This document shows, one piece after another, positions 17,768-48,240 of a DNA stretch of 64,000 bases. The stretch comes from a virus: IMG/VR virus record IMGVR_UViG_3300032217_000845, positions 32,001-96,000 of that record. One strand, written 5' to 3'. The notes under the pieces were generated by a model. That model searched no databases. It was not told the origin of the DNA and worked only from the letters and a program-made list of their open reading frames with translations. The translations under genes and the position numbers were made by a program. The number at the start of each line of letters is the position of its first letter. The stretch's first letter is position 1.

Positions 17768-18015
17768 TTGTAAATCCCGTTTCGTAGCAGTGCCTTCCAC
17801 CGACTTCTAACTACTAATAAGAAGTATAGCACTCGACCGACATAAAGTCAAACACTTAGATACTTCTAAATAGAGAAGACATACTTTTAGAAAAAACGAA
17901 TACAAGCGACTAAGACCCTCTACGGAAAAAACGAATACAACTAAACTCATCAGCCGACACTCTGATTAGTAATAAGAAGTTGCTAAATGTCCGAGGGTGT
18001 GCTACTCTCTCTGGT

Positions 18016-18579
18016 ATGGAAATCACAACACTAACTAGACACGAATACACCACAGAACGAGTTGCCAAGCACACAGGCAGTTTGGAGGGTTGCTATGACG
18101 ACTTCCACGTTGGCGAAGTCAATGGCGTAGTTATCTACATAGGAACTGACTACGCTGGCACGATTGACCCTGCCAAGAACCCTTTGAGGTTCTCGGACTA
18201 CTCTGCGAAAGAGATGAAAGGCTTTCAGGAGTATTGGGGACATTGGGACGCTATCAACAAGCACCTCCACAACAAGACCACAAAACCGGGCTGGGGTCTT
18301 ATCAACCTAGTTGTCTATGGCTTTGTAAATGGCATACAGATTGGCGACCCTACAAATGTTCTACACGCTGTTCCAACAGGTTTCACGCCAGAGGCAAACA
18401 GGATAGACGCAGGGGAACTTGTCTGGGTAGAGGTAGAACAGGCTGTAATGGATTGGCTCAACTATCCAGATAGCCAGCCAACACTTCACGCAATAGCAGA
18501 GGCAAAGCGTAAGGAGGCTGTTGCTCTATTCACAGCGAGCCTAGACCTAATCCAGCCTCTCGCCACGCTGATAAAATAA
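18016..18579 (+). CDS. hypothetical protein (leaderless start)
   Basis: First unit of the island; ATG about 7 nt after a -10-like box. Confidence 0.65.
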   Translation: MEITTLTRHEYTTERVAKHTGSLEGCYDDFHVGEVNGVVIYIGTDYAGTIDPAKNPLRFSDYSAKEMKGFQEYWGHWDAINKHLHNKTTKPGWGLINLVVYGFVNGIQIGDPTNVLHAVPTGFTPEANRIDAGELVWVEVEQAVMDWLNYPDSQPTLHAIAEAKRKEAVALFTASLDLIQPLATLIK

Positions 18580-18674
18580 ATCAGAAATGAACTTGACAAC
18601 TTCGCATTAGTAGTGTAAAGTCGTCAGTAGTTGGAAACCTCCAACGCACAAACTCCGAAAGGACGGAAATACAA

Positions 18675-19154
18675 ATGGCAACAGGAACTATCGTTGGCAA
18701 GGGACTTTACTTAGAGTTCGTTCCAACAGACACCACCACTCCTAGCACTAAGGTAATGCAGGTGCTATTCACACCAGAGGGTATTGACGAGGCTGGCAAC
18801 TATGTTCAGTTCTCAATGCACTCTCGCACTATCTCTGAAACTTCACCTCGCAAACAATGGAGGATTACGAAGTGTGGCACAGAGAATAAAGAGTTGCTTT
18901 CACTTGGCTCTGTTGGACAGGTCAAGGCACAGGAACTCGCTGTCCAAATGGTAGAACGCTTTGAGAAATCACTAGAACGAGCAGTTATGCCAGACAAGAC
19001 AAATCCAACTTGGAAACTTCGGTCTAAGCCAATCGCTGTGGAAATCACTTCCTTTGACTTGTCTGAAATCACAGATTGGAAAACCCCTCTGCCAGCACTA
19101 CGCAGAATACAGAAATGTCGTGTAGCACTTGACTTCCCCGAGAAGTTAGTGTAA
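18675..19154 (+). CDS. hypothetical protein
   Basis: TTGACA promoter and GAAAGGA RBS. Confidence 0.7.
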   Translation: MATGTIVGKGLYLEFVPTDTTTPSTKVMQVLFTPEGIDEAGNYVQFSMHSRTISETSPRKQWRITKCGTENKELLSLGSVGQVKAQELAVQMVERFEKSLERAVMPDKTNPTWKLRSKPIAVEITSFDLSEITDWKTPLPALRRIQKCRVALDFPEKLV

Positions 19155-19189
19155 GGTCAATACTACAAACCGATAAGGACGGAAAACAA

Positions 19190-22147: not shown

Positions 22148-22470
22148 TCGGCTCGCCTCCACAAGAACCCGATAGGGATTGAGCAACCGAGGAGTTTCCG
22201 TCCCCTTTCACCTCAACTGCTCTCGCTATTGGTAGAGAACCCCTGACAACTTCCCCTTTGGTCAGGGGTTTTCGCTTACCCTGACCGACACACAATGTGT
22301 CCAGCAAAAGCATCTCTGCTGGAACTTCGTATCAACTAATCCGAAGTCAGCCTGAGCTGCCGAGATGGTCGCCTTGTATTCGTTTTTTCCAAACCGACAC
22401 GCCTCCTCGCCTACTTGACAACTTCGTATTAGTTATGGTAAGGTCGTAGTATCAACCGAAAGGGAAACAA

Positions 22471-23663: not shown

Positions 23664-23707
23664 CGGCTCGCCTTGACTAATCAGACGGATTGGTGTAGGG
23701 TAGCCTT

Positions 23708-24192: not shown

Positions 24193-24428
24193 ACCAACCC
24201 CGATAGGGAAACACCTGAGCAAGTGTTCTAAACTGCTCGCCACAATCTGCCTCCGTTTGTATTCGTTTTTTCCTCGGACTTGCGAAATGTCGGAGGCTGT
24301 GATACACTCGCTAATGTGAAGTTCTCCGATAGGACGACACACCAGAGCAAATGAACTTGACAAAGTTTCGTAAGTCTGGTAAGTTCTAAATGTAAAGCCC
24401 AATGATACTAAGTAGATAAGGAAATCAA

Positions 24429-24806: not shown

Positions 24807-24986
24807 CGAGAGTAAGCCAGAAAAGCCCCGACAGACAGTTATCCCCTTTCACTCTGTCGGGGTTTTCGCCTATCTGGTTTTGGCTCGTTTGTATTCGTTT
24901 TTTCCTCGCATCTAAAATCTTCGGGTTTGACAACGACACACTAATACGAAGTTGTAAATGTCAGAGGTTTATGGTAGAGTGCTGGT

Positions 24987-26522: not shown

Positions 26523-26673
26523 CTTTTTGGTGAGGTGTTGTATTCGTTTTTTCTCTACGCCTACTGTGGAAAGAGGGAACTTCGCATTAGTGTTTCGTTC
26601 TTGACAAATGTCAGAGGAGTATGCTAGTATCACTATGTAGTCAGAAAGTCTGACACAGAAAGGGTCTAGTCCT

Positions 26674-27159
26674 ATGGGATTGGATATGTATTTAGAGGCT
26701 CGCAAGTATGTAAGTGGATACTCTCACAGACCTATTGACGAGCAGAACGAGTATGAGGAAGTGCTGAACTCGGTAGGTATGTCAAGAACAGACCTAACAG
26801 CAGAGGCAAGTCCTTTCGCTAATGTAAGTATAAATGTTGCTTATTGGCGTAAGGCTAATCAGATACACGCTTGGTTCATCAACAACTACGCCAAAGATGG
26901 TGTAGATGATTGTAGCCCTGTCCATCTTGGCGAGAGATACCACCTTAGTATTCTAAGAAACCTCTGCCAAGAGGTCATTGACGACCACAGCAAAGCAGAG
27001 GAACTTCTGCCTGTTTCATCTGGCTTCTTCTTTGGGTCAGACGAGTATGGCGAATACTACTTCCAAGACTTAGAGAACACCATTGAGCAGTTGGATAAGT
27101 TGCTCTCTAATCCTAAGTTTGCTGAGGGCTGGGACTTCATCTACCAAGCAAGTTGGTAG
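26674..27159 (+). CDS. conserved phage protein (MGLDMYL / YWRKANQIH family)
   Basis: MGLDMYL, AYWRKANQIHAWF, LLP..GFFFGS..Y.EYY, YQASW. Confidence 0.8.
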   Translation: MGLDMYLEARKYVSGYSHRPIDEQNEYEEVLNSVGMSRTDLTAEASPFANVSINVAYWRKANQIHAWFINNYAKDGVDDCSPVHLGERYHLSILRNLCQEVIDDHSKAEELLPVSSGFFFGSDEYGEYYFQDLENTIEQLDKLLSNPKFAEGWDFIYQASW

Positions 27160-27336
27160 CCACAAACTAAGCACGACCCCTTAGCACACGCTAGGGGGTT
27201 TTGCTTTACCTGTTTGCTGGCGAGGTGTATTCGTTTTTTCAGACGACACGGCACGGCACGGGAACTTGACTAAACAAATGAACTATGATACTATGTAGAT
27301 ACAACGGGCGAACAGGAAGTAGCCTGAAAGGGATAA

Positions 27337-27708
27337 ATGGAAACTACAACTATTACGGGTCTGGTAGCAACCACACCACGACACCTAGTATCAGCAGACG
27401 GCTTGCCGATTACTTCTTTCCGATTGGCGAGCAGTAATCGCAGGTTTGACCGAGCCACTATGGAGTGGGTGGACGGCGAGACTAATTGGTATACGATTAC
27501 CTCTTTCCGCACACTCGCAATCAACACCGCTACATCTATCAGCAAGGGCGACCGCATTGTTGTATCAGGCACACTTCGTATTCGTGATTGGGACAACGGC
27601 GAACGGGTAGGAACTAGCGTTGAGTTAGAGGCGAGCAACATTGGACACGACTTAGCGTGGGGGACTACCACCTTTGTCCGAACCGTTCATAAAGCAGACA
27701 CCGAATAA
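27337..27708 (+). CDS. ssb: single-stranded DNA-binding protein (actinobacterial short SSB, no acidic tail)
   Basis: ITGLVATTP...FRLAS..RRFDR...WVDGETNWY...SKGDRIVVSG.LRIRDW...IGHDLAWG. Confidence 0.9.
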   Translation: METTTITGLVATTPRHLVSADGLPITSFRLASSNRRFDRATMEWVDGETNWYTITSFRTLAINTATSISKGDRIVVSGTLRIRDWDNGERVGTSVELEASNIGHDLAWGTTTFVRTVHKADTE

Positions 27709-27885
27709 CCGAACGGCTCGCCTAACGGCGTGGGATTGGCAAGCCTAACGGCTTGCCTTTCTGCGTTTGACGGCAAGCCTATTGGCGAGCAGACGGCAAG
27801 CCTAACGGGTGTGTCAGGCTTGACAAAGACCGACCGCTATGGTAGGCTAGCAGAGCAGACAACCCTGCCAACCGATAGGACAGAA

Positions 27886-28128
27886 ATGACAACCGCACTA
27901 CCCGAACTAACCGAGATGACCACCAAGACCGACCAACCGATAGTCGCACTCTACAACCGAGACGACAGACTAACGGGTATCGTAAATGGCTGGAAAGTCG
28001 CTGACGGAGTAATGGAAATGGACGAGAGTATCAAGCGAGCAGTAGCGACTAGCGAACTGACTATGGCTGAACTCGTTGAGATTGACCAGAGTATCGCCAG
28101 ACTTCGCAACTTGCGTGGAACTCTCTAA
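27886..28128 (+). CDS. hypothetical protein
   Basis: TTGACA promoter and AGGA RBS before ATG 27886. Confidence 0.6.
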   Translation: MTTALPELTEMTTKTDQPIVALYNRDDRLTGIVNGWKVADGVMEMDESIKRAVATSELTMAELVEIDQSIARLRNLRGTL

Positions 28129-28304
28129 ACAAAACTAGCCAAGTGGAAACACTTGGTTTTAGTTTTAGCCCGAAGTGTATTCGTTTTTTCCCTGCGTAAA
28201 TTTTGCTGAAAATAAAATCCTAAATGAGTTTGATTTTGTCGGGAGTATGTGGTAGGGTATAAATGTAGTCAGAAATACTGATTATCCAATCACTCTGAAA
28301 GGGT

Positions 28305-28667
28305 GTGGTAAAAGTGGAAACACTAAACCAAGTAGTAATAACAAAGTCGGTCAATGGCGTAGAAGTTGCCACGCTATCTGAACTAGGGATTTTGCTAGGC
28401 GTAAAGCCAAGCACTATCTTTGTCTGGATAGATAAATACAAGAACTTCCCTAAGCCTGTTGCCGAAATCAAAGGTGCTGGTCGTAATGGGCGTTCTCGCT
28501 TGTTCCCGATTGACGCTGTTCAGGTGTGGCACAAGAAACACATTACGACACGCAAGGCTAACGAATGGACAGGTATTCTTTCCAAGTTGAGCCAAATCTC
28601 AAAGGCTAGTCCTGCCACTTACAAAATCATTCTGGAAATGATTGACGAAGCGTCAGGTCGCAAGTAG
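28305..28667 (+). CDS. AlpA/excisionase-like HTH protein, paralog of 30739
   Basis: NGVEVATLSELG..LGV..STIFVW....NFPKP. Confidence 0.7.
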   Translation: MVKVETLNQVVITKSVNGVEVATLSELGILLGVKPSTIFVWIDKYKNFPKPVAEIKGAGRNGRSRLFPIDAVQVWHKKHITTRKANEWTGILSKLSQISKASPATYKIILEMIDEASGRK

Positions 28668-28847
28668 CCACACGACACTAGACTTACCCCCTGCTAATCA
28701 CAGGGGGTTTTCTGGTTTTGGGACACGACTAGTTTGTATTCGTTTTTTCCATCACGACACACTTCGCACTAACACGCTTGACTTTATTTAGAAACTATGC
28801 GATAATAGAGATGTTGTCGGGAAAGGCTCGGCACGGAAAGGGATAAA

Positions 28848-29171
28848 GTGGGCGACAGGTCTGCGATTATCATTGAGAGTGAAAGGTTCATCACGCCTAT
28901 CACGCTATACGGACACTGGTCGGGCAGGAACAACCTTGCTGCTGTGGCTAGTGTGTTGGAAACTACGGACAGGGTTGGCGACCCGTCTTATCTCACGGCT
29001 CAACTGTTTTACAAGTTTGCTGTGGAACTTGGCAAGTATGACGGAAATCTGTCTTTCGGTATTGACGCTTTCGGTGGGACACCACAGGAAATAAATGCGA
29101 CTATGGACACCGATACGATTGTCGTAAATGCCGATAATGGAACTTGGCGTTGGGCGATACCCGTAGAGTAA
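28848..29171 (+). CDS. hypothetical phage protein
   Basis: MGDR...LYGHWSG...DPSYLTAQL. Confidence 0.7.
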   Translation: MGDRSAIIIESERFITPITLYGHWSGRNNLAAVASVLETTDRVGDPSYLTAQLFYKFAVELGKYDGNLSFGIDAFGGTPQEINATMDTDTIVVNADNGTWRWAIPVE

Positions 29172-29384
29172 TCTTTATACGAACGCAGGTTAGCACTCAC
29201 GCAACACGAGTGCTAACCTCTTTTCGTTTTTGCTTAGGTAGAAGTTGTATTCGTTTTTTCCGGCAGCGACAGATAACTTCGCATTAGCGACACGAAGTTA
29301 GACAGACTTGCGTTTGTCGCTAGTGTGTGATACAATGAAGTTATTACACAGGCGAGAAACCTAAGTATCGCTGAAAGGGAAACA

Positions 29385-37025: not shown

Positions 37026-37151
37026 ATGGAACTAACTGACCTAGAAGCAAAAGCAGTAAAGGCTATTTACAGCGACTATCACGATGGGGCTATGGACGCT
37101 GACGAAGCACTACACGCCTTAGAACAACTCATCAACAACGACAACGACTAA
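37026..37151 (+). CDS. small acidic protein (41 aa)
   Basis: Abuts the previous stop and is followed by a terminator. Confidence 0.45.
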   Translation: MELTDLEAKAVKAIYSDYHDGAMDADEALHALEQLINNDND

Positions 37152-37311
37152 GAACAGAGAGAGAGAGCCTATGCTTCGGCATAGGTTTTCTTTCTGCGTG
37201 GGTAGCAGTGGAAAAAACGAATACATACGGAGAGCAACACGCCTATCCTATGGACTTGACTTTTATCCTATGCTTTGATACAATAGGGGTATAGAAAGAA
37301 AGGGGTAGCAA

Positions 37312-37674
37312 GTGGCTACTAAGCAAACAGCAACAGCAAGCATAAAGTTATGGGACTTTACTCTAACTATGTCGGGTGGCATTATCGGCGTATGGAGTGA
37401 ATGGACTTACACACTAACCTATGGTTCTGGACAGAGCAAGACCTATCACGACGAACACGGATACTACACAACAGACGAGTTAGATGAAGCCCTATGGGTA
37501 GAAGCAGTTCGCATTGTTGAGAAGTATGGCAGAAACATTTCAGTTGAGGTAGCAGATGTAGAAGTCTGCCCTGATTGCGACGAACGCATTACAGACGACA
37601 ACCCTCTCATTGACGAAACACAATACAGCACGCAGTTCGGTTCTTGTATTGGTTGTTGCGACCCTACGCCATAA
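37312..37674 (+). CDS. hypothetical protein with C-terminal zinc finger
   Basis: CPDC...CIGC; RBS. Confidence 0.65.
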   Translation: MATKQTATASIKLWDFTLTMSGGIIGVWSEWTYTLTYGSGQSKTYHDEHGYYTTDELDEALWVEAVRIVEKYGRNISVEVADVEVCPDCDERITDDNPLIDETQYSTQFGSCIGCCDPTP

Positions 37675-37851
37675 CACGACCTAACAAAACGCCACTTAGT
37701 CAAACGACTAGGTGGCTTTTGTCTTATCTGGAAGTTGTGGCGAAGTGGCAGTGTATTCGTTTTTTCCTAACAACATCGCATTAGTGAGATGTGCTTGACT
37801 TTGTCGGGGGTCTGTGTTAGAATAGTATTATCCAAATGAAAGGGGATACAA

Positions 37852-38004
37852 ATGGCAGAGCCATTGCTACACACACTTCGTCAGTTATCGGCAGACACCG
37901 ATGTAGAAATCGGTTTGCTTGCTTACGACGAGCAACTCATTCGCCTTATTAGAACTTCACACAAATACGCAGACTTGCTTGTGTATGTGGATAGCAACTA
38001 CTAA
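37852..38004 (+). CDS. small hypothetical protein (50 aa)
   Basis: Own promoter, GAAAGGGG RBS and terminator. Confidence 0.55.
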   Translation: MAEPLLHTLRQLSADTDVEIGLLAYDEQLIRLIRTSHKYADLLVYVDSNY

Positions 38005-38223
38005 ACAATAAAGCGAAACTAAAACCTGGAAGCGAAACTGCTTCCAGGTTTTACTTTTGCCTAATGCGAAGTTGCTCATCTAGTTCGGTGTATTCGTTTT
38101 TTCCGTGAGTGTGCTACACGGGTCGCAACACGCTAGTTCTATGTGCTTGCTTTTGTCGTAGGGTTGTGGTATAATAAGATTATGAAATGGAACGAAATCT
38201 AAGTAGTTCCGAAAGGGAAGCAA

Positions 38224-38469
38224 ATGAACATTTATGAAATCGTAGAGAGTGGTCAGGTTGTATTATCTGCCGATGAGGAAATGGGAGTTCTAATCACTTG
38301 GAACGGCAACTCAATGCTAAACCTCTGGGTAAGAGATTACTCAATGGGAAACTGGGACAACACCGATGTTAGAACACGCTACGACATTGACGGAAGTCTA
38401 GGCAAGGCATTAGAAGAAAGTAGCGAGTGGCTTTTAGAAATGGAACAGGGTCGCTACGAGAACCACTAA
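38224..38469 (+). CDS. hypothetical protein
   Basis: Promoter, RBS and terminator unit. Confidence 0.65.
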   Translation: MNIYEIVESGQVVLSADEEMGVLITWNGNSMLNLWVRDYSMGNWDNTDVRTRYDIDGSLGKALEESSEWLLEMEQGRYENH

Positions 38470-38689
38470 ACAACAAACTAACAAGGAACGCCCTCGCAGA
38501 AATGTGGGGGCTTTCTTGCTTTTGCTGTGGGTTGTTAGTTCGTTGTTGCTGTGGTGTATTCGTTTTTTCCGTAGCATACGACACGACAAAAGATTATGCT
38601 AAATGGATTTGACTTTACGATAGGCAACTGCTATACTGAGAGGGTAGTCAGGAGAACAAGGGGTTCGAGGGCTACGAAAGGGAAACAAG

Positions 38690-38938
38690 ATGTCTAAGAA
38701 AGTAATCGTTCTAACCTCTACCTCTCAAGGAGAGCGTGGTCAGGCAGGACACAAGAAAGTCTATGAGATTATCGTAGATGGCAACAAGGTAGAACTTCGC
38801 TGGGGCAAGGCAGAGGAAACCAAACGACAGACACAAACCAAGTGGTTCTCTTACGAGAACGCCGCTTACAACTTCGCACTAGAAAAGAAATGGGCGAAAG
38901 TTGATAAGGGGTATGTAGTCGCTTACCAAGCGATTTAG
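38690..38938 (+). CDS. WGR domain protein
   Basis: HKKVYEI.VDG..V.LRWGK...Q...K..KGY. Confidence 0.75.
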   Translation: MSKKVIVLTSTSQGERGQAGHKKVYEIIVDGNKVELRWGKAEETKRQTQTKWFSYENAAYNFALEKKWAKVDKGYVVAYQAI

Positions 38939-39187
38939 CCACGAAAGACTTGTCGGGGTATTGCCCCCCTTTCCCCCGACAAATGAGAAGCCCCCGACTA
39001 GTTCGGGGGTTTCGCTTTTTTGCTGTGGGTGTTTGGCTGTGGTGTTGTTGTATTCGTTTTTTCCATAGCGTTCATACACACGGCGAGTGGGGGGGGGGTG
39101 TGTTGTTGGCGTTTCGTGTTGCTTTTGTCGGTTGTGTGTGGTATGATAGTTATAGACAATCAAGGTGGTTGTCTGAAAGGGAAACAA

Positions 39188-39346
39188 ATGAAAATCTATT
39201 CACTAATCATCCACGATGAAGTTGCTAATGTTCATCCTGTTTATGAAGTTCATTCTTGGGAGAAGGCAGAAGAAATCATCAAGAAAACAATCGAACTAGC
39301 AGAAGGCAAGCCTTTTACTTGGGAAGTTGTCGGAAACTCAAACTAA
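39188..39346 (+). CDS. small hypothetical protein (52 aa)
   Basis: Consensus RBS before ATG 39188; resembles 43502. Confidence 0.6.
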   Translation: MKIYSLIIHDEVANVHPVYEVHSWEKAEEIIKKTIELAEGKPFTWEVVGNSN

Positions 39347-39550
39347 GTTAGTCAAAGTAGTCCCCCTGCGTATGTGGGGGGATTATTTTTTTGTCTGTGG
39401 GTGTGCGTGGTTGTTTGGAAGTGTATTCGTTTTTTCCGTAGGTATAGCAACACGGCGAAGGGGGGGGGCGACTTGACTTTGTCGTATCTATGTGTTATGA
39501 TGTAAATACAAGGGAAACGAAATAGAAGTAGTTTCGTAAAGGGGTTCTAA

Positions 39551-39883
39551 ATGAGTTGTAAAGATTGGTCTATCGCAGTAGTAGCCGAAAAGCCTATGTG
39601 CGACATCTGCCCTAAGTTTGGGTTTATCACTAAGGTTGCCGAGTATGACGCTAGAACGCAGTTCGGGGGAAACCCGTGGGCGTTTATGTGCGAGAGTTGC
39701 TACGGCTACTTTGGGTTTGACCGACTAGGTCTAGGCTATGGTCAGCGACTAATAACAGAGAGCGAACACACTCACGAGTGGATAGAAGTAAATCTCGCCG
39801 AGTATGAAACTTACGAGTTTAGCCAGAGCGAGCCAGATACTACGCTATGTTCGCAATGTGGGCTACATAAGCCAGCAGAATAA
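39551..39883 (+). CDS. zinc-finger phage protein
   Basis: CDIC...YDART..G.PWAFMCESC...LGLGYGQ. Confidence 0.7.
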   Translation: MSCKDWSIAVVAEKPMCDICPKFGFITKVAEYDARTQFGGNPWAFMCESCYGYFGFDRLGLGYGQRLITESEHTHEWIEVNLAEYETYEFSQSEPDTTLCSQCGLHKPAE

Positions 39884-40072
39884 GGTCTAGGGGTTAGGTC
39901 AAGTGCCTAGCCCCTAATCTTATGTTCGGGGTCTGTGGAAAAAACGAATACACCTCGCTTGGCACGGCTACTAGCTTTTGCTGTGGTGTGCTGTCTTACT
40001 TGACTTTCTTATGTTTCTATGTTAGGCTCTCGGTAGAGCCTGAAAATCTCGGGTTCTAGAAAGTGGGTTCCA

Positions 40073-40531
40073 ATGTCCAAGCCAGCCAGCGATAAGCAGG
40101 TAGCGTTTCTTACCACGCTCGCAAGCGAGCGTATCTACGAGGGTGCGACCGAGTTCGCTACCCTTACCTCTGCCGAGGCTTCCGACCTAATCGGTCAGTT
40201 GCTAAACGCACCACGCAAGTCCAGCACCTCTACTTCATACGAGCGTATTACGGAAGAGGGCGTGTATCAAAACGCCGAGGGCGACATCTTCCGTGTCCAG
40301 CGTTCCCGTGAGAGTGGCAACCTCTACGCCAAGCGTCTAGACATCTTTGAGGGTGGCTTTGTCTATGAGGCAGGGCTACTTCGCAAAATCACACCTAGCG
40401 ACCGACTAGGCGTTGAGCAAGCCAAGGCTCTTGGAGTTCAGTATGGCTTCTGTGTAGTCTGTGGTATCTTGCTTACCGACCCTAAGAGCGTTGAGCAGGG
40501 TATCGGTCCTGTGTGTATCAAGCGTGTCTAA
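40073..40531 (+). CDS. DUF6011-like zinc-ribbon protein
   Basis: ASDKQVAFL N-terminus; CVVCGILLTDPKSVEQGIGPVC. Confidence 0.75.
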   Translation: MSKPASDKQVAFLTTLASERIYEGATEFATLTSAEASDLIGQLLNAPRKSSTSTSYERITEEGVYQNAEGDIFRVQRSRESGNLYAKRLDIFEGGFVYEAGLLRKITPSDRLGVEQAKALGVQYGFCVVCGILLTDPKSVEQGIGPVCIKRV

Positions 40532-40770
40532 CGCCTAGCGTTAGTCAAGACCCCCTTGCCAAACGGCAGGGGGGTTTTCCTTTGTCTAATGCGAAGTTGT
40601 GGCACGGGGGGAGATGTATTCGTTTTTTCTGTGGTGCTGGTTTTGGGCTGTGGTCGTTATCAAGTTGTTATGTATTTATTATGCGTTTATGTAGAAAATG
40701 TCTGTGGAGTAGGCTATAATGGTATTAGTTGGAAGTTAGCGAATGTCTAACTCAACTGAAAGGGACGCAA

Positions 40771-40986
40771 ATGGCTAAGCCAAGTGTGAAGTTAGTTCAG
40801 GAATGGGAAGTTGCTTACGAGAGTGGGCTAGTGAAAGTGTCTTACGGCACGGCTGTCTTTGAGCAGGACTATTGGAAAGTGGAAAACAGGATTATCAACA
40901 AGGTTCAGTATTTCTACGGAGAAACTGCGTGGTCGGACGCTAGGCGTAGAGCAAGCGACATTGACTTTGGTGCGTGGAGTTTCTAA
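40771..40986 (+). CDS. hypothetical protein
   Basis: RBS; FYGETAWSDA.R motif. Confidence 0.65.
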   Translation: MAKPSVKLVQEWEVAYESGLVKVSYGTAVFEQDYWKVENRIINKVQYFYGETAWSDARRRASDIDFGAWSF

Positions 40987-41263
40987 CTAAATAATCAAAC
41001 AAACAAACTAGGCAGGGTTCTCCTCTCTGCCTAGTTTTGTTTTTGCCTGTGGTAATGCGAAGTTGCGTGCGTGCGTATGTGTAAGTGCGTGCCTGTGGTT
41101 GCGTTCGTGTATTCGTTTTTTCCTAACTACTACGGAACGAAACACGGGTGCTAGTTCGTTATCTGTTTGTTATAGAAAGTTAGTGTATGAACTTGACTTT
41201 ATCTTAGTTAGGGTATAGACTACATTTGTAGTCGCAAGGGCTACCAGATGAAAGAGGGAACAA

Positions 41264-41587
41264 ATGGCAACTATCAAGATTACTTGGGTATCAAAGGGAT
41301 ACTTGGGCGAGTTCAGGGACGCAACTATCCTTGACCTAATCAACAAGGGCTACGATGTTCGTGGCAACGCAACAGCAGAGTTGGACTTTGACTTTCCAGA
41401 GGGCGACACTCTAATCTGTAATGCTATCTACGCAAACACTAACTCCTACACAGGAAAGTTTTGGGACGCATTACAGGCAGTTATTCCAGCAGACAGACCA
41501 CACACGGCTCTAAGTATGGGCGACAAGGTTTCTATTGACGGACGAGAGTATGTTTGCTCGGAGTTCGGTTGGAAACTTGTAGCCTAG
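41264..41587 (+). CDS. hypothetical protein (YodL-like C-terminus)
   Basis: RPHTALSMGDKVSIDG..YVC..FGW. Confidence 0.65.
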   Translation: MATIKITWVSKGYLGEFRDATILDLINKGYDVRGNATAELDFDFPEGDTLICNAIYANTNSYTGKFWDALQAVIPADRPHTALSMGDKVSIDGREYVCSEFGWKLVA

Positions 41588-41788
41588 CCAAACAGCCAAA
41601 CAGCCAAACAGCCAGCCGAAAGGTTGGTTGTTTGGTTTTTGCGTTAGTGCGAAGTTGTGGCTGCCAGGAAAAAACGAATACAGACCCTAGCCCGACACGC
41701 CCGACACGACAAGCAACTTGACTTTATTGCTGTGGTATGTTAGACTACAAATGTAGTCAGAAAGATTACGGAACTGAAAGGGAAACAA

Positions 41789-42007
41789 ATGAACCTACTA
41801 CAAGCAGAAATCCTAGTTATCGGACTTGAGTTTGAGATTGCTATGGACGGAAAGATGTCTGTTAGTGCCGAACCAGCGATGAAGTCTTTGGGTCGCCTGA
41901 TGAACATTGACGCTTATGCTCACTTTGGTAAAGGCGTAAAGGGTCGCCAAAAGGCTCTTGAGTGGCTCAAGGAAGCGATTGCGGAAGCAGAGAAGCAAGA
42001 AGCCTAA
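41789..42007 (+). CDS. hypothetical protein
   Basis: Consensus promoter and RBS. Confidence 0.65.
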   Translation: MNLLQAEILVIGLEFEIAMDGKMSVSAEPAMKSLGRLMNIDAYAHFGKGVKGRQKALEWLKEAIAEAEKQEA

Positions 42008-42073
42008 TACGAAGTTAGAAGCCCCCTACGGAAGCGTGGGGGGTTTTCTCGTGCCTGTGGAGTTATGAACACC

Positions 42074-42094
42074 TGTGGATAACCCTGTGGATAA
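42074..42094 (-). promoter_or_regulatory. two perfect DnaA boxes (TTATCCACA)
   Basis: TGTGGATAA-CCC-TGTGGATAA. Confidence 0.65.
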
Positions 42095-42187
42095 CTTTGG
42101 TGGGGTTTGTATTCGTTTTTTCCTAATCACGCTTGCGAGTTGCCTCTACAATAGGAACACGCTTACATTTAGAAAGAGAGGCTAACT

Positions 42188-42418
42188 ATGGTTTGGATAC
42201 AAACAAACTTTACCGCCGAAGCAATGAACACGGGCAAGCCAGCGACAGAAACCCCTGTTGTAGCGAAGCCTGAACCTGTCGTCAAGAAGAAGGCTAAGGC
42301 TGAACCTGTGGCAGAAGTAGTAGCAGAAGTAGAAACACCTGCGGTTGAGGTTGAGGAAGTAGTCCTCGCTGAACCAGAGGTCGCCGAGCCAGAGGTCGCT
42401 GAACCCGAAGCAGAGTAA
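42188..42418 (+). CDS. low-complexity Glu/Pro/Val/Ala protein
   Basis: AEPEV repeats; GAGG RBS. Confidence 0.6.
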   Translation: MVWIQTNFTAEAMNTGKPATETPVVAKPEPVVKKKAKAEPVAEVVAEVETPAVEVEEVVLAEPEVAEPEVAEPEAE

Positions 42419-42514
42419 TCACGGCTTATAGTAAAGTCCCCCTTGACTAGAAATAGTTAGGGGGATTTTCTATTTGGTGTTGCTTTTGTCTGTGGTATGT
42501 GATAGACTATAAAT

Positions 42515-42785
42515 AACAAGGAAGCGACGGCTAACTTGGAGTATGGCTGAACAACCTCAATCGTCAGATGGGGGGGTAAGGCAATGTCGGATACTAGCGT
42601 ATCGTCTTAGCGGACAAACGGCAGGTGTGCTGAAAAGCGGGCTTAGAACCGAACTGACTTGGCATTGGTGGTAAAACGCAATCCACCTACTCAACTACAA
42701 ACATAAACGGGCTGGTGTGGCGTTTATGTGGCTAACATTAGTGGCTACCAGACAGAACCCTTAGCGGAAACGCTAGGGGTATTTC
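42515..42785 (+). ncRNA. candidate ncRNA unit (alternatively a 43 aa peptide)
   Basis: Own promoter (42480-42509) and terminator (42756-42785); no long ORF; several stems. Confidence 0.4.
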
Positions 42786-42929
42786 TGTTTTTGCGATGTC
42801 TGCGGTTGCGGTATGTATTCGTTTTTTCCTAGCCCCTCACGAGAGGCGACACACGCACGGCAGGTGGAGTTGCTTTGTTTAGGTGTTAGTGGTATGATTA
42901 CTTTGTAATCAAGCAACGAAAGGGAAAAA

Positions 42930-43298
42930 TTGGAAAACAGAATTACTGAAAAGCAATTAGGGCTTCTAAGAAAACTAGCCAAAGAAAAATACGCACCAAG
43001 TTTGGTTGCGGAGTTGGAGAAGTTTCTAGCAACTGATTTGAGCAAGCAAGGGGCTAGCAACCTTATTGAGAAGTTCCTAGAAGCACCGAAGAAAAGCGAA
43101 AGTCCAGAATACAAAGCCGAACTTGCCGAGAGAGCCAAGCAAGCGAGAGAACGAGCAGAACTAGCCGAGCAAGCCAAGCAAGCAGAAACCGAGAACTGCC
43201 GAGAGTGTAAGCAGGGACACCCTGTCGCACATTTCAATTGTAGTTTCCCGAACAGGATTGGACACACTAGGCACTGCACCGCTGACTTGTGTTTCTAG
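42930..43298 (+). CDS. hypothetical protein
   Basis: ITEKQL..L...LSKQGASNLIE N-terminal module, similar to the N-terminus of 40073. Confidence 0.65.
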   Translation: MENRITEKQLGLLRKLAKEKYAPSLVAELEKFLATDLSKQGASNLIEKFLEAPKKSESPEYKAELAERAKQARERAELAEQAKQAETENCRECKQGHPVAHFNCSFPNRIGHTRHCTADLCF

Positions 43299-43501
43299 TT
43301 AGCAACTAGGGAAGTCCCTTAGCCAGAAATGGTTAGGGGGCTTTCTTGCTTTTGGGCTGTGGCTGTGGGTTAGGTGTATTCGTTTTTTCCTAGCCTCAAC
43401 TGCGACACGACACGCATACGATAATGACTTGACTTTCTGTTATCTGTGTGTTAGAATACTTATGTATTCAAAGGGAATACAAAAACGAAAGGGAAACACA
43501 A

Positions 43502-43708
43502 ATGTCAGTAAAAACTCTAGTAGTAGAAATCCACTACCAAGACGGCAGACCAACTCTAAAGCCAATCTACGAGTGCCACAGCGTAGAAAAGTTTGAGGAG
43601 TTTGTGGCTTGGCACAAGGAAAACCTACCAATGAGAACCACCACAACTCTCAAAGCCTACGACTACAACTCAACCACCCCTGAACTAACAGAGATGATTA
43701 TCAAGTAA
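43502..43708 (+). CDS. hypothetical protein
   Basis: Consensus RBS before ATG 43502. Confidence 0.6.
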   Translation: MSVKTLVVEIHYQDGRPTLKPIYECHSVEKFEEFVAWHKENLPMRTTTTLKAYDYNSTTPELTEMIIK

Positions 43709-43894
43709 GTTAGGCAACCGAGAACCCCCTACGAAAGTGGGGGGTTTTCTTTTGTCTGCGGGTGCGTGTGTTAGTGCGAAGTTGTAGAGTGTGAAATCGG
43801 TAGCGTAAGAAAAAACGAATACACTACGGACACGACAACACGGGGGCGAGTGTGGCTACTTGACTTTTGCTGTGGTAAGTGGTAGAATAGTATT

Positions 43895-44326
43895 ATGGCA
43901 AAACTTCTAGTGCTACAAGGCTTAGTGGCTTCGGGCAAATCAACTTACGCTAAGGGACTTCTATCTATTCACCCTGCGGGCTACGCTATGCGTATCAACA
44001 ATGACGACTTATCTACGGCTATGTTTGGCTCTGCGTTTGGCGGTGGTGCTAACACGGCTCAACTGCTAGGCAAACTTCGGGCGGACTTAGTTCGTCTAGC
44101 GTTTCGCAATGGTTTTGAGTTAGTCATTATGGACAACACAAACCTAAACCCGAAAGCCGTCAAGTCATTAGAAAGATTGGCGGAGAGTTGCGGTGTTGAG
44201 TTTGAGTTGGACAACTCGTTTCTAAGTGTGCCTATTGCGGAGTGCTTGCGTAGAAATGCTCTGCGTGAAAACCCTGTTCCCGAAAAGGTGGTTTTAGAAA
44301 TGGCTCGCCTTATTGGAGATGATTGA
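43895..44326 (+). CDS. P-loop kinase (AAA_33/polynucleotide kinase-like)
   Basis: GLVASGKST, INND, IMDNTNL, ECLRRNALR..PVPEKVV. Confidence 0.85.
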   Translation: MAKLLVLQGLVASGKSTYAKGLLSIHPAGYAMRINNDDLSTAMFGSAFGGGANTAQLLGKLRADLVRLAFRNGFELVIMDNTNLNPKAVKSLERLAESCGVEFELDNSFLSVPIAECLRRNALRENPVPEKVVLEMARLIGDD

Positions 44327-44390
44327 CTTTTGCGTTTCTATGTGGTAGAATACTTTTGTAGTCAAAGGGATTGACTACTGAAAGGGAAAG

Positions 44391-44591
44391 ATGAACAAGT
44401 TCGTTATCACAAAGTCAATAGCAGTAGTCAAGGCAGTTGCTCGTGGTGTTGCGGTAGCAACCGAAAGCAAGGCGACCACAAACCGAAAGGCGAAAGTTGC
44501 TAACGAGGTAGCCAAGTGCGTTGCCGACTTAGGACTAAACCCTGTTGCGAGTGTGAAGCGTGTTGTGCGTATGGTGGAAACCCTGCGGTAA
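44391..44591 (+). CDS. small basic protein
   Basis: Promoter and RBS. Confidence 0.6.
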   Translation: MNKFVITKSIAVVKAVARGVAVATESKATTNRKAKVANEVAKCVADLGLNPVASVKRVVRMVETLR

Positions 44592-44809
44592 GACTTACAA
44601 AGCAAACCCGTCTAGCGAAAGTTAGGCGGGTTTTCTTTTGCTTGCGGTGTTTGCTTCGTGCGTTGTTGTATTCGTTTTTTCCTAAGTGCTTGCCTAGTGC
44701 GACACGCTAGAAAGAAAGTTTGTAAATGAACTTGACTTTTCTGCGGTAGCCTGATAGACTACAAAGGTAGTCAAGGCAAAGGGCTAAGACACAGATGAAA
44801 GGGAAACAA

Positions 44810-45139
44810 ATGACCACAGCAACACAGACCACCGCAAAGGTAATCTCTAAGGTTGAGTTGAGTGCTAAGGGCGTAAAGGCTCTACAAGCGTTCAACAAAG
44901 CAAAGGAAGCGGAAGCAAAGGTAAAGGCAACTAAGTCAAAGGCGGAAGCAATTTTGCGGACAGAGTTGGGCGAAACCCCGAACACACAAGCAACTATTCA
45001 GGGCGTAGTTGTTGCCAGCGTAGTTGGAAGCAAGAATACTTCGTTTGACCGAGATGCTCTAAAAGAGTTTCTAGGTGAAGAGAAATACAACGAGTTCCTG
45101 CGGACAACCGAATACACTTACATCAAAACCGCTAACTAA
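44810..45139 (+). CDS. hypothetical protein, paralog of 24429 and 32735
   Basis: Coiled coil plus FDRDALKE...Y..F tail. Confidence 0.7.
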   Translation: MTTATQTTAKVISKVELSAKGVKALQAFNKAKEAEAKVKATKSKAEAILRTELGETPNTQATIQGVVVASVVGSKNTSFDRDALKEFLGEEKYNEFLRTTEYTYIKTAN

Positions 45140-45328
45140 GTTAGCAAGCGAGCAACCGCTAACCGAAAGGTTGGCGGTTGTTTGCGTTTTTGTTTTGCGG
45201 TGTTGCGTTTCGTGCGTGTGTTCGTGTGTCTGCGGTAAGCGTGGAAAAAACGAATACACTTTCGCCAGCCAGCCACGCCACGAAAGCGAGTGTTTGCTTT
45301 TGTCTGCGGTTAGTGTTAGAGTGTAAGT

Positions 45329-45466
45329 ATGGACATTAGATTTTATGCGTGGAAAGCAGTCGCTAAGGTTGCTAGGTATTTCAGCAGAGTTGGGTATAAC
45401 CTATTTAGGCGAGCCGAACACTTCTCTTATCTTTCAGGTAAGAAAGCAAGCAAGTATAAGGCTTGA
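45329..45466 (+). CDS. small basic amphipathic peptide (45 aa)
   Basis: Leaderless ATG after TTGCTT..TAGAGT. Confidence 0.45.
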   Translation: MDIRFYAWKAVAKVARYFSRVGYNLFRRAEHFSYLSGKKASKYKA

Positions 45467-45524
45467 CTTTACTGCGGTAAAGTGATAGAATAGTATTACC
45501 AGACAACACTAAGAAAGGGTGAAA

Positions 45525-45767
45525 ATGTCTAGCAACTATCCAGACGGCTCTATGATGGGTTCAGGTATTTACGCAAGCGAGGTTTCGTATGAAGAGTTTG
45601 AGTGCGAAAATGAAGAGTGCGGTAAGACCAATGAAGCAGGTGAAACTTCTACTGACGATTGGGGAAACTACTCTATCGAGTGTGAGTTCTGCGGTGCTAA
45701 CTATTTAGAGAGTTCTCTAAGTGATGACCGAGATGACTACTTAGCAGACTACGACCCGAATAACTAA
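45525..45767 (+). CDS. acidic zinc-ribbon protein
   Basis: SNYPDG start; CENEEC...CEFC. Confidence 0.65.
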   Translation: MSSNYPDGSMMGSGIYASEVSYEEFECENEECGKTNEAGETSTDDWGNYSIECEFCGANYLESSLSDDRDDYLADYDPNN

Positions 45768-46242
45768 ATAGACTTATGCGGTAAGGCGGGGAAAGCCGAA
45801 CGCAACTTTACATAACTAAATAAACTTCTGCCTAACTTGTTTCCCCCTTTCCGTTAGGCAGAGAAAGAGAAACGGGACTGCCCCCTAACTAACCCGTTTC
45901 TCCTAAACCGCTAGGCGTTTATTCGTCTAGCGGTTTTGTCTTTGTCTGCGGTGTTTGTTTTTGTGTGTTTGTTGTATTCGTTTTTTCTTGTGCTTGTGAA
46001 ACCGCTTCCACTACGCAACTTTGTATTAGTAGGTTGCTTCGCTTCCTTCGCCTTCGCTTCGTGTTGTTGCTTCGCTTCGCTTTCGTTCGCTTCGCTTCTG
46101 CGGTGCTTCGCTTAGTGAGTTGTTTCGTTATCATTTTGTTATAAAGTCGTTATCGTCTTTGTAATCTTATTACTTGACTTTTATTCTGCGGTAGAGTAGA
46201 ATAAGAGTATGTAGAAAATCTACATAGAAAGAAAAGGGAAAG

Positions 46243-46461
46243 ATGAACAACAAGGCAAGAGATACCCGAGCAAGTTGGGGACTAGTTTCATTTATGTTGG
46301 CATTGTTTATTGGTGCTGACGCTTTGGGAAACATAGACACTACGGACTATTACCACGACAGAGCATTAGGTTTCTTTGTTCTGTTCTTAGGTATTACTTT
46401 CGTGCTTTACACTTGGAACGCTATTCAGTATGCGGTATTCCTAAAACGCAATAGACGCTAA
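46243..46461 (+). CDS. two-TM membrane protein
   Basis: Promoter and RBS; hydrophobic. Confidence 0.6.
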   Translation: MNNKARDTRASWGLVSFMLALFIGADALGNIDTTDYYHDRALGFFVLFLGITFVLYTWNAIQYAVFLKRNRR

Positions 46462-46499
46462 CAACTTCACAACTTAGCAACCGCCTAGCCGAGAAAGGT

Positions 46500-48240
46500 T
46501 AGGCGGTTCTTTGTTTTTGTTTGTGCTTCTTTCTTTTGCTTCGCTTCGTGCTTCGTGAGAGGTTGAGAAAAAACGAATACGCTTCGCAACTTTGTATTAG
46601 TGTTTGTCTGCGGTGCTTCGCTTCTAGGTTCTTTCTTTGCTTTGCTTCGCTTCGTAGTTCTTTCGTGCTTCTTTGTCTTAGTTGCTTCTTTGTCTGCGGT
46701 GCTTGACTTTCTTGCTTCTTTGTTCTATGTTTGTTTGCTTCGCTTCGCTTCGCTGTTATCATTTCGTTATTATTCTGTTTGACTTCTTTGCTTCTTTGTT
46801 CTATGCTTATTCTTTGTTGTTATCATTTCGTTATCTTTGTATGTTCTTGACTTTGTTAGTCGTTTGTTCTATGCTTACTCTTTGTCTGCGGTAATGCTTC
46901 TAAGGGGTTGTTTGTTATCATTTCGTTATAAAGGTATAAAAAAAGTGCCTTTGTAGAATAAGCAAGGCGACACTTTCAGGGATAGGCGTGTGTGTTTGTA
47001 TCATCTAAGGGGTCGTGGCTTCTATGAGCCTTATAGAGCCTTTTGAGATAGGGGACTTTCAGGATTATTTGGGTTCGTTATCTGTTCGTTATCTGTCTGT
47101 TATCTGTTCGTTATGTGCGGTAATGCTTCTAAGGGGTATTTCCTTGCTTCGCTTCTCTTAGTTAGTTGTTCTCTTTCCCTGTGCTTACTTGCTTAGTTCT
47201 ATGCGGTAATGCTTCTACTGCTTGACTTATGTGCTTCTATGTAGTAGAATAGTGTTATCTATTCGTTATCTAATAGACTTGACTTTATTAGAATACTTTG
47301 ATAGAATAGTATTGTCTGCCTCTTTGACCTGACTTGACTTAGTTAGGTTAGGCTTCCCTAACTTACTTCCCTGCGGTAATGCTTCTACAAGTTAGTTAGT
47401 GCTTCGCTTCGCTTCCCTACTTAGTTAGTTGTTTGACTTATTCGCTTATGTCTGTTAGAATAGTGTTATCTATTTGTTATCTAACTTACTTGACTTTGTT
47501 ATAGTTTTATGTTATAATAGTAATGTCTATCTATTGACTATCTCAACCCCTACCCCCTGCCTACTTAGGTTAGGCTTACCTTACCTACCCCCTGCCTAGC
47601 CCTGTGCGGTAATGCCCTTATAGGCTTACTATTCTCTGCGGTAATAGTGGTAATGGTTCGTTATCATTTCGTTATCTATTAGTTAGTGCTTGGCTTTGCT
47701 GGGTTAGTCTAGGTTAGGTTAGCCTTACCTAACTAACTAAGTATTAGTTAGTGCTAACTAGGTATGACTTACCCCCTTGTATGTATTACCTACCTACCTA
47801 TACCCCCTACCCCTACCCCCTTATGCTTACCTATCTCTGCGGTAAGTGCTTTATAGGTTGTTTGTATCCTAATGACTTACTTACCTAGGTAAAGACTTTC
47901 ATCACTTAGATAGTCATTGACTTACTTAGTCATTGACTTACTCACTTAGTCATTGACTTACTCATCTACTCATCTACTCATCTACCTTTGTAGTGGATAG
48001 AGTGCTTAGTGCTAAGTTGATAATCGTTAGTGTCCTAATGACTTACTTACCTAGGTAAATAATAGTTAGTTAGTGCCTAGTTCGTTAGTGTCCTAATGAT
48101 AGTCGTTCGTATCCTAATGATTTCATAAACTAATAAACATAATCGTTTGTATCCTAATGATTTAGATAGTAAAGAGAGCATTGACTACCTTACATAACAA
48201 TAAATAATAATGTTATGTCAAGTAAGAATTTTCGTAGCAT
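46500..48240. repeat. ORF-free repeat region (possible genome end, terminal-repeat boundary or origin)
   Basis: GCTTC runs, GTTATC..GTTAT repeats, TGCGGTAATGC x5, TAGTCATTGACTTACT x3, TCCTAATGA x5, tandem promoters. Confidence 0.8.

Follow-up and report, generated by a model that had tools for sequence, protein, structure and literature searches.

A genome-private 16-mer in helical phase with the promoters of a one-gene cassette array: a candidate upstream operator in a lake phage family

Multi-copy operators and promoter-terminator cassettes are both known kinds of phage sequence organization. Here, the closest described systems are compared with a 14-nt word, GTATTCGTTTTTTC (hereafter the box), repeated between the genes of a presumed early region in the viral record IMGVR_UViG_3300032217_000845. 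This record is linear, 125,776 bp long and estimated to be 93% complete, and the window, the whole stretch of 64,000 nt under analysis, corresponds to its bases 32001-96000. The phage, uncultured and associated with lake actinobacteria, is designated G0 where it has to be told apart from its relatives, which are labelled G1 to G6, L132, L135, L139, L149, L244 and L245. Published work is cited for the passages that treat the point in question.

The stoperators of Cluster A phages, including L5, Bxb1 and TipsytheTRex, are asymmetric words of 13-16 bp mostly found in one orientation, with a motif distance that correlates with repressor distance (PMC6550527). Like the box, they occur in tens of asymmetric copies in short intergenic spaces (PMC6550527), and the version of the motif differs between related genomes (PMC6550527; PMC9283540). 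In contrast to the box, stoperators extend over a whole temperate genome, lie downstream of promoters, where they stop elongation, and serve as binding sites of the immunity repressor. The boxes are found upstream of each promoter, are helically phased, belong to one 30-kb early island and show no degeneracy at all, and integrase, ParA/B or repressor families are missing from the 59 proteins that were scanned (a subset of the open reading frames, ORFs). The conserved inverted repeats (CIRs) of the temperate Streptomyces phage phiC31 are 17-bp palindromes that serve as repressor operators and have many conserved copies in early intergenic DNA. The box resembles them in being a many-copy element of intergenic early-region spaces, but it is asymmetric; it is relative G5 that carries a palindromic word, GATCGATC or CGCGCTCGCGG, at the equivalent place.

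Among promoter-terminator cassettes, the promoter early stem-loop (PeSL) elements of T4-type phages come closest, with spacers made of a terminator and an early promoter that flank small, mostly unknown genes in a hyperplastic region (PMC4122927; PMC2839356). It is in these spacers that close relatives differ by indels and swaps (PMC4122927), as is the case here in contigs, among the joints listed. Yet PeSL elements are defined by a promoter and a stem-loop, while in the present array an additional, genome-private and invariant 16-mer stands between the two, in phase and in either orientation. The position of this word relative to the promoter recalls class I activator sites such as those of CRP, which have their centres near -61.5, -71.5, -82.5 and -92.5, on the helix face turned to polymerase, and act through the RNA polymerase alpha subunit's C-terminal domain (alpha-CTD) (PMC4132738). 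An UP-like A/T tract next to an activator site has also been described (PMC4132738), and the phi29 protein p4 binds upstream of promoter A3 and recruits polymerase to it (PMC2731898). Class I and p4 sites are, in contrast, single symmetric-dimer sites at few promoters; here, one asymmetric word stands at about 40 promoters and is known from its sequence alone.

No paper describing the box or the island that holds it was found in a search limited to the articles proper, and the words promoter, intergenic, palindrom or repeat do not occur in the text of the paper on the related Actinomycetia phage DSL-LC01. What is new here is the 16-mer unit, its helical phasing recurring in relatives, its lineage versions and its match with the island, as well as a divergent promoter pair served by two boxes.

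An invariant box between one-gene units

Exact matches to the box number 41 in the window, as the original prediction had counted (31 on the + strand and 10 on the - strand, between 17890 and 46580; Table 1), and 100 dinucleotide shuffles contained none. Across the 125,776-bp genome, the copies are confined to a single 28.7-kb stretch. Tolerating up to two mismatches added one match only, a two-mismatch word at 53822, outside the array, and fragments of the 16-mer of at least 10 nt occur nowhere else in the genome on either strand; decayed copies are therefore absent from the 125.8-kb genome. The conserved unit is longer than the predicted 14-mer, which is preceded by T in 40 of the 41 copies and trailed by C in 31, and corresponds to the 16-mer TGTATTCGTTTTTTCC, written in halves as TGTATTCG and TTTTTTCC. 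No conservation at fixed positions was detected beyond this 16-mer within 60 nt on either side in either orientation class, which bears out the view that the flanks diverge around an unchanged core. The box is neither self-complementary nor an imperfect palindrome, and an Rfam search at the boxes returned no match. A guide-RNA role was rejected, since no complementary stretch of at least 10 nt exists elsewhere in the genome.

All 41 copies are intergenic, some small ORF calls that overlap a box being spurious. The recurrent unit consists of a gene, a G+C-rich hairpin with a T-run, a GT-rich spacer of 12-60 nt, the box, a second spacer, a promoter, a leader and usually one gene; with a rough ORF call on the + strand, 26 of the 40 inter-box intervals hold a single ORF. 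From 26540 onward the spacing between boxes is 329-950 bp, and 32 of the 35 intervals fall within 350-900 bp. A hairpin with a T-run lies 14-64 nt upstream of the box in 31 of the 41 copies, most + copies being located 12-44 nt past the terminator stem, and a TTGACT-N17-TAnnnT promoter (score of at least 14) stands between the box and the next ORF in 39. The boxes are found 16-84 nt upstream of the next -35 box, and 27 of the 35 promoters examined have ACACG or CGACAC in the 70 nt that precede the -35 box. Between -10 and ATG lie mostly 40-50 nt (leader length about 45 nt), and between box and ATG 41-540 nt. An independent search of 27000-46999 for consensus sites detected 33 promoter-like ones (21.7 +/- 4.8 in shuffled sequences) and 52 terminator-like ones (17.2 +/- 5.2). 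Thus, the intergenic placement, the 350-900 bp spacing from 26.5 kb onward and the loose ACGACAC word of the original prediction all hold, and its terminator-box-promoter order is present at most copies.

A second, looser word, CTAATGCGAAGTT or AACTTCGCATTAG, was noticed in many spacers, in both orientations and on either side of the box (for example at 26585-26600, 31105-31120 and 32215-32226). The relatives have it as TTCGTTGGAAGTT, often abutting the -35 box, and the word is also present in G5, which has no box, and in L245.

Relatives were found through the terminase large subunit TerL, for which a viral contig collection holds 483 confirmed relatives. The portal protein shares 70% identity with its counterpart in DSL-LC01 (assembled from a lake metagenome), 57-64% with the portals of large Microbacterium phages and 40-47% with those of Arthrobacter and Gordonia phages. 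Twenty public runs, mostly labelled as freshwater or lake metagenomes, hold parts of the array. When 10-12 kb of the window were compared by megablast with 50,697 phage records, no match emerged, and the bare 14-mer was represented in viral contigs by single chance matches only, among the matches listed. The genomes with a version of the box have TerL proteins that are 80-91% identical (amino acids), and within each genome the word is invariant. The G0 word itself recurs in G1 (36 copies on +, 7 on -) and L135 (9 and 1); the others, with counts given likewise, are GTATTCATTTTTTCAC in L139 (7 and 2), GTATTCATTTTTTATC in G2 (21 and 0), GGTATTTATTTTTTCTG in G3 (15 and 0) and G4 (4 and 3), GTATCCACTTTTTTAC in G6 (15 and 0), GCATTTTTCATTTTT in L132 (8 and 0) and ATTTTTCATTTTTTCG in L149 (6 and 0), and TATTCATTTTTTC and GTATCCACTTTTT are further box words of related genomes. 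The scan of the full genome and of relatives that had been proposed therefore places every G0 copy in the array and gives the relatives versions of their own. These share a pattern, a variable core of 7-8 nt followed by a constant T6, and track TerL identity only loosely, with one or two letters differing between phages whose TerL proteins are 84-91% identical. Such a word is lacking in G5 and DSL-LC01. In the Pumpernickel phage, genes are tightly packed.

Helical phasing and the putative reader of the box

Gaps between the box and the -35 box cluster at about 17, 28, 39, 48, 60 and 72 nt in G0. This periodicity corresponds to a Rayleigh R of 0.50 at 11 bp, a value reached in 0.18% of 5000 trials of a jitter null in which each distance was shifted by up to 6 nt either way and periods of 9.5-12 bp were scanned. 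G1 gave R=0.72 at 10.5 bp with a phase equal to that of G0. In a pool of 121 box-promoter pairs from 11 sequence sets, none of them more than 75% alike in spacer plus promoter, R was 0.47 at 10.5 bp and was not reached in any of 4000 jitter nulls; taken by themselves, the 44 pairs whose genomes have other box versions also yielded R=0.47 (p=5e-4). The distance from box centre to the start of the -35 hexamer has its mode at 36.5 nt. With the hexamer set at -35 to -30, the modal box centre is -71.5, and further classes are found near -50, -61, -82, -92 and -102. With transcript starts inferred from the promoter boxes, these positions match the class I activator sites, which centre at -61.5, -71.5, -82.5 and -92.5 (PMC4132738). 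The distance from terminator to box was also considered as the constrained one and rejected, being variable (14-64 nt in G0).

Orientation is biased as well: in five genomes, the T-tract is on the promoter side in 107 of 127 copies. Among inverted copies, the 15 for which a promoter can be recognised are periodic too (R=0.58, p=0.019), with a phase that, measured from the centre, lies within about 1.3 nt of that of direct copies. This offset fits a functional centre in the middle of the 16-mer, at the junction of core and T-tract. Inversion is in place, since the terminator, ACACG and promoter of inverted copies keep the + layout, and the mixed orientation of the boxes shows that the element works from one helix face in either polarity. 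Orientation is kept across genomes at 39938 (G1) and 43809 (G1 and L135) but differs before the orthologous cassettes at 32556 and 36112. At the left end of the array, boxes 17890 and 17925 lie between divergent promoters, one box near each; box 17890 is 38 nt upstream of the leftward promoter and in canonical orientation with respect to it. The leftward promoter points into + strand genes and is antisense to 17450-17767.

These data bear on two statements of the original prediction. Ten copies are on the - strand, as it said, yet those at 17890 and 17925 are co-oriented with the leftward promoter and not simply inverted. Its conclusion that a promoter element is unlikely is not supported: the box is a promoter-associated upstream element, co-oriented with the promoter in 107 of 127 copies and nearly in phase with it when inverted.

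We lean, if only slightly, towards reading the box as a phased upstream operator for a phage-specific DNA-binding protein that would act on RNA polymerase at all early promoters, either as an activator or in a joint shut-off. The core of 7-8 nt (GTATTCG in G0) would be read by one sequence-specific and lineage-specific protein, the adjacent invariant T6/A6 tract providing an alpha-CTD docking or bending segment. Bound at helical-turn positions, such a protein would face RNA polymerase within reach of the alpha-CTD, and its occupancy would act on some 40 early promoters at once. Protein binding, a phage origin of the protein, the alpha-CTD contact and the sign of the effect are inferences from the sequence. 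The reader is probably phage-encoded, because one-letter versions of the box separate close relatives. A joint shut-off, by over-stabilising and so holding polymerase, may be favoured over activation because the early promoters are already near-consensus at -35 and -10; phi29 p4 is said to repress the strong A2c promoter through the same alpha contact. The box may also be the place where exchanges between related phages resolve, because it is the sole conserved island in fast-evolving spacers.

Several points weigh against the operator reading. Identity of 14 out of 14 positions over 41 sites is stricter than in usual operator sets. The rules for alpha-CTD and UP elements derive from Escherichia coli and Bacillus, not from freshwater actinobacteria. 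The value of -71.5 may be off by 1-2 nt, transcript starts being inferred from consensus promoters, and the pooled sites share ancestry, so that naive Rayleigh p-values overstate their independence, an effect mitigated by the jitter null and the split by genome. Spacer-length differences between 12 orthologous G0 and G1 cassettes are near multiples of 10.5 in 8 cases, with about 6 expected by chance. No binding protein was identified among the candidates with a helix-turn-helix (HTH), in the relatives, or in database and PDB searches.

Seven HTH candidates were run through Pfam, a phyletic profile was drawn from six relatives, and six HTH queries were used in a local iterated search; a PDB sequence search gave a weak MerR-type match only (E=0.015). 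The weak candidate left by this search is the tandem HTH protein at 13652-14143 (Table 1), for which a database search returned 7 clusters and a locus search 4 loci. Homologues were found only in G0, G1, G2, G3, L244 and L245. Several points speak against this candidate: the protein is only 48-49% identical in three genomes that share the same box, with differing recognition helices; G6 carries a box of this family, yet no homologue was detected there; and L245 has a homologue, yet no GTATT box was seen in the 10 kb downstream. Recognition helices compared by eye did not covary with the box. The protein at 50562-51116 was rejected as the specificity factor, its HTH being invariant across box versions, which also counts against the operator reading, and that at 48358-48867 was rejected as a universal factor, being absent from the G2, G3 and G4 lineages. 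No protein whose sequence tracks the box version was found among the candidates compared, and no integrase, other recombinase, ParA/B, repressor, RNA polymerase or sigma family was recognised in the 59 scanned proteins. The predicted coordination of the early region by one phage protein gains indirect support from invariance, lineage versions and phasing, while the protein itself was not found.

Occupation of the box by a protein of the host, for instance a transcription factor, nucleoid protein or DnaA-like factor, either recruited to the early promoters or titrated from the host chromosome, appears unlikely to us. Early promoters fire before any phage protein is made, so that a pre-existing host factor would be the simplest occupant, and no phage factor emerged from the candidates searched. 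In addition, the G6 version, GTATCCAC, agrees at 7 of 9 positions with TTATCCACA, which we take to be the DnaA box consensus, and two perfect copies of the latter adjoin the box at 42109. Yet versions that differ by one or two letters among phages with TerL proteins 84-91% identical fit a private, fast-evolving partner better, and the G0 core GTATTCG matches no host operator that we could name. As for these DnaA-type boxes, the two perfect copies (- strand, 42074 and 42086) immediately precede the box at 42109, together with a near-copy. They are the sole ones in the window, and a similar TGTGGATAA cluster precedes a box in G2.

Two further explanations start from the invariance of the word. 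A promoter, or promoter part, for a phage-specific RNA polymerase or sigma factor, whose inverted copies would yield antisense RNA, would typically be such a long, invariant and genome-private word. We regard it as extremely improbable: a full host-type promoter lies beyond the box at a distance that varies but is phased, ATG keeps a constant distance from -10 and not from the box, and RNA polymerase and sigma families are lacking among the 59 scanned proteins. The box is not a two-part promoter because no partner element, or second element of any kind, occurs at a fixed spacing. The box could otherwise be the target of a DNA-acting enzyme, either a sequence-specific modification enzyme or a site-specific nickase of the sort that introduces the nicks of T5-like phages. 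Invariance without degenerate copies is typical of enzyme recognition sites. Promoter phasing and confinement to intergenic DNA would not be expected of them, however, no nickase was recognised among the proteins scanned, and this option is very unlikely.

Table 1. Positions in the window of the 41 box copies and of associated features
Feature	Position	Strand	Remark
Box copy 1	17890-17903	-	exact-match scan; leftward promoter 38 nt away
Box copy 2	17925-17938	-	exact-match scan; 41 nt upstream of rightward promoter 17980-18008
Box copy 3	22376-22389	+	exact-match scan
Box copy 4	24259-24272	+	exact-match scan
Box copy 5	24891-24904	+	exact-match scan
Box copy 6	26540-26553	+	exact-match scan
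Box copy 7	27227-27240	+	exact-match scan
Box copy 8	28177-28190	+	exact-match scan
Box copy 9	28736-28749	+	exact-match scan
Box copy 10	29247-29260	+	exact-match scan
Box copy 11	29874-29887	+	exact-match scan
Box copy 12	30617-30630	+	exact-match scan
Box copy 13	31135-31148	+	exact-match scan
Box copy 14	31640-31653	+	strain-level joint 31653 to 34966 ends exactly at 3' edge
Box copy 15	32227-32240	+	exact-match scan
Box copy 16	32556-32569	-	inverted; + copy before orthologous G1 cassette
Box copy 17	33155-33168	+	exact-match scan
Box copy 18	33704-33717	+	exact-match scan
Box copy 19	34357-34370	+	joints/loose ends at 34351 and 34371
Box copy 20	34933-34946	+	exact-match scan
Box copy 21	35690-35703	+	exact-match scan
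Box copy 22	36112-36125	-	inverted; orientation differs before orthologous cassette
Box copy 23	36758-36771	+	exact-match scan
Box copy 24	37211-37224	-	inverted
Box copy 25	37753-37766	+	exact-match scan
Box copy 26	38090-38103	+	exact-match scan
Box copy 27	38556-38569	+	exact-match scan
Box copy 28	39050-39063	+	exact-match scan
Box copy 29	39423-39436	+	exact-match scan
Box copy 30	39938-39951	-	inverted; likewise inverted before orthologous G1 cassette
Box copy 31	40616-40629	+	exact-match scan
Box copy 32	41109-41122	+	exact-match scan
Box copy 33	41668-41681	-	inverted; strain-contig loose end starts exactly here
Box copy 34	42109-42122	+	exact-match scan
Box copy 35	42815-42828	+	exact-match scan
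Box copy 36	43376-43389	+	exact-match scan
Box copy 37	43809-43822	-	inverted; likewise inverted after orthologous cassette in G1 and L135
Box copy 38	44668-44681	+	exact-match scan
Box copy 39	45244-45257	-	inverted
Box copy 40	45974-45987	+	exact-match scan
Box copy 41	46567-46580	-	inverted
Leftward promoter TTGACT-17-TATACT	17823-17851	-	-35 at 17851-17846, -10 at 17828-17823; kept in G1
Rightward promoter TTGCTA-17-TACTCT of the first island gene (ATG 18016)	17980-18008	+	read from sequence
Palindrome-purged island, 30.4 kb	17834-48226		box array + 1.6-kb non-coding tail
Non-coding tail, T-rich and repeat-rich	46581-48226	+	several ORF-less rightward TTGACT promoters; 9 GTTATC-N4-6-GTTAT
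Tandem HTH_17/MerR-like protein, probably 150 aa from 13691	13652-14143	+	weak box-binding candidate

Cassette turnover in the array

Products recognised in the array include several HTH proteins, an SSB, a dual-specificity phosphatase, an AAA_33 kinase-like protein and a MoxR-type ATPase with a VWA protein, and many ORFs have no family. The ORF-free part of one cassette is filled by a match to the Rfam manA RNA motif (RF01745; 42520-42697, + strand; 61.4 bits for a gathering score of 55.2).

Gene content and order vary between relatives. Among array ORFs of at least 60 aa in G1, 28 of 50 have a homologue in the G0 array, 22 collinear and 6 displaced, and G0/G1 homology often crosses the terminator and ends at the box's 3' edge. 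Strains with deleted or reordered cassettes are represented by contigs (at least 90% alike) from four freshwater metagenomes. One joint links 31653 to 34966 with 18 other letters between, and others link 40608 to 41108, 34371 to 43870, 44693 to 43870, 45183 to 44667 and 45197 to 34351; loose ends were observed at 33150, 34351, 41668, 42102 and 43373. Twelve of the 15 rows of a first table of joints were left out (short side below 30, same-length or diverged skips within genes, or location beyond the last box), as were 3 of the 12 rows of a second (35442 and 35443, in a gene with an acidic repeat, and 46837) and, among 24 loose ends, 6 in the acidic-repeat gene (35092-35443) and 3 beyond 46700. 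The listed rows that remained comprise 24 joint endpoints, 7 of them within 8 nt of a box edge, and 15 loose ends, 5 of them equally close; this zone covers 5% of the stretch. None of the 15 joints listed changes strand. In one clean deletion, from 42788 to 43350, the ends were joined 26 nt upstream of both boxes, at a 5-nt microhomology.

The acidic-repeat part (about 35405-35443) of the cassette gene 35048-35446 stood out in the same contigs, with a summed depth of 45-83x in three runs, against 1-26x elsewhere, and is also rich in loose ends. It is therefore a repeat or domain common to other organisms too.

From these data one might take the box to be primarily a recombination point for single-gene cassettes, used either by homologous or microhomology exchange, for which PeSL would be the precedent (PMC4122927), or by a dedicated site-specific enzyme. 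The limited overlap of the G0 and G1 arrays (22 of the 28 shared ORFs being collinear), the enrichment of contig endpoints at box edges among those listed and the homology that stops at the 3' edge all speak for it. We consider it doubtful nonetheless. Helical phasing with the promoter is left unexplained by recombination, and the clean deletion joins outside the boxes. As any viable exchange is limited to a spacer of 100-150 nt, and the aligner carries the match into the box, the enrichment is modest when set against intergenic DNA. Furthermore, an active site present in 31 direct copies would delete the array, no integrase or recombinase family occurs among the 59 scanned proteins, no - strand gene was found between oppositely oriented boxes with the rough ORF call, and the evidence comes from contigs, joints and loose ends among those listed. 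We thus read the cassette turnover as real and its breakpoints at box edges as a probable by-product, with homologous exchange resolving there, as with PeSL, and not at an enzymatic site. The box is treated as a resolution point because a viable exchange must fall in the spacer, where the box is the sole conserved word.

The shuffling put forward in the original prediction is thus upheld as far as variation of gene order and content between relatives is concerned, and not as turnover tied to the box as an enzymatic site. Its integron-like version fares worse. In contrast to integron attC sites, the box is not self-complementary or an imperfect palindrome, each cassette has its own promoter, no integrase was seen in the 59 scanned proteins, and strand changes are missing from the listed joints.

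A palindrome-purged island

The array and the non-coding tail behind it coincide with an island, 17834-48226, in which the palindromic 4-mers CATG, CGCG, GATC, GCGC, GGCC, GTAC and TTAA have no occurrence at all. Seven others occur at 0.07-0.23 per kb, against 0.7-6 per kb outside; CTAG and TATA are spared, and GATC is missing from the entire 64-kb window. The purge spans a quarter of the genome and nearly all palindromic 4-mers. Its edges are sharp, matching the first box on the left and the end of the tail on the right. A similar purge accompanies the box arrays of G1, G2, G3 and, weakly, G6, and is lacking in G5, which has no box, and in DSL-LC01.

The first DNA to enter the cell in T5/BF23, by first-step transfer, and the leading region of Autographiviridae survive restriction unaided; they lack restriction sites and carry variable early and anti-defence genes (10.1101/866236; PMC12455610). 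The present locus resembles them in its sharp 30.4-kb block without nearly all 4-bp palindromes. Unlike in these phages, nearly all palindromic 4-mers are affected and not particular sites, and the likeness concerns the island, not the box. The purge would have its best precedent in first-entering DNA that must survive restriction, and it supports calling the array the earliest DNA.

The first gene of the island (17980-18579, with counterparts in G1, G2 and G3) encodes a fast-evolving acidic protein of 177-199 aa without a family, one type being common to G2 and G3 while G0 and G1 carry two others; by its position, it may be an anti-restriction protein. At the other end, the tail (GC 0.395, AT skew -0.35) contains repeats of GCTTCGCTTCG, CTGCGGTAATGCTTCTA, TAGTCATTGACTTACT and CGTTNGTATCCTAATGA, and could be an origin, entry-stop or terminal region. 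The edges of the island carry outward-facing promoters, that at 17823-17851 on the left and ORF-less rightward ones at 46.7-47.5 kb on the right. Downstream of the leftward promoter and adjoining the left edge, 3.7 kb of coding DNA (14028-17715) contain 42 AACCG on the + strand and 2 CGGTT, against 5/2 and 2/0 in the flanks; this bias may be a polar signal, for example Chi-like or linked to translocation.

The box might be thought to serve DNA entry or insulation, with a protein past each terminator acting as roadblock, ratchet or topological barrier during entry of the restriction-proof island into the cell. In keeping with this idea, the array coincides exactly with the purged island, both being present together in G1, G2, G3 and, weakly, G6 and both lacking in G5 and DSL-LC01; the box follows the terminator stem by 12-44 nt in most + copies; the promoters at both edges of the island face outward; and restriction avoidance in leading regions (PMC12455610) and two-step entry (10.1101/866236) offer precedents. 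It is the distance from box to promoter that is phased, however, that from terminator to box being variable (14-64 nt in G0), and the record is linear, 93% complete and known as contigs. Entry or insulation is, in our judgement, quite unlikely to be what the box is for.

A more ambitious version of the operator reading, possible but doubtful, would make the box a lineage 'barcode'. A protein that is made first or arrives along with the DNA would bind the 16-mer on the helix face turned to polymerase and couple host RNA polymerase to box promoters only, or later release all of them together. The one-letter versions of the box would isolate co-infecting relatives from each other's control and limit cassette exchange to phages that share a box. 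The array, the restriction-proof island and the outward promoters at its edges would then form a dedicated and self-contained 'landing module' of the genome.

If a phased upstream operator is indeed what the box represents, a large and abundant family of lake actinophages, with 483 TerL relatives in one collection, would control dozens of early promoters through one word, which each lineage rewrites. The 16-mer and its one-letter natural variants would provide a precise and cheap handle on early-gene control in phages of freshwater actinobacteria that are uncultured or hard to grow, and a natural system in which an operator set and its reader change specificity jointly. The array would also mark the entry points of new early genes, likely anti-defence ones, and the match of its extent with the 30-kb restriction-proof island also suggests the manner and order in which this DNA meets the host.

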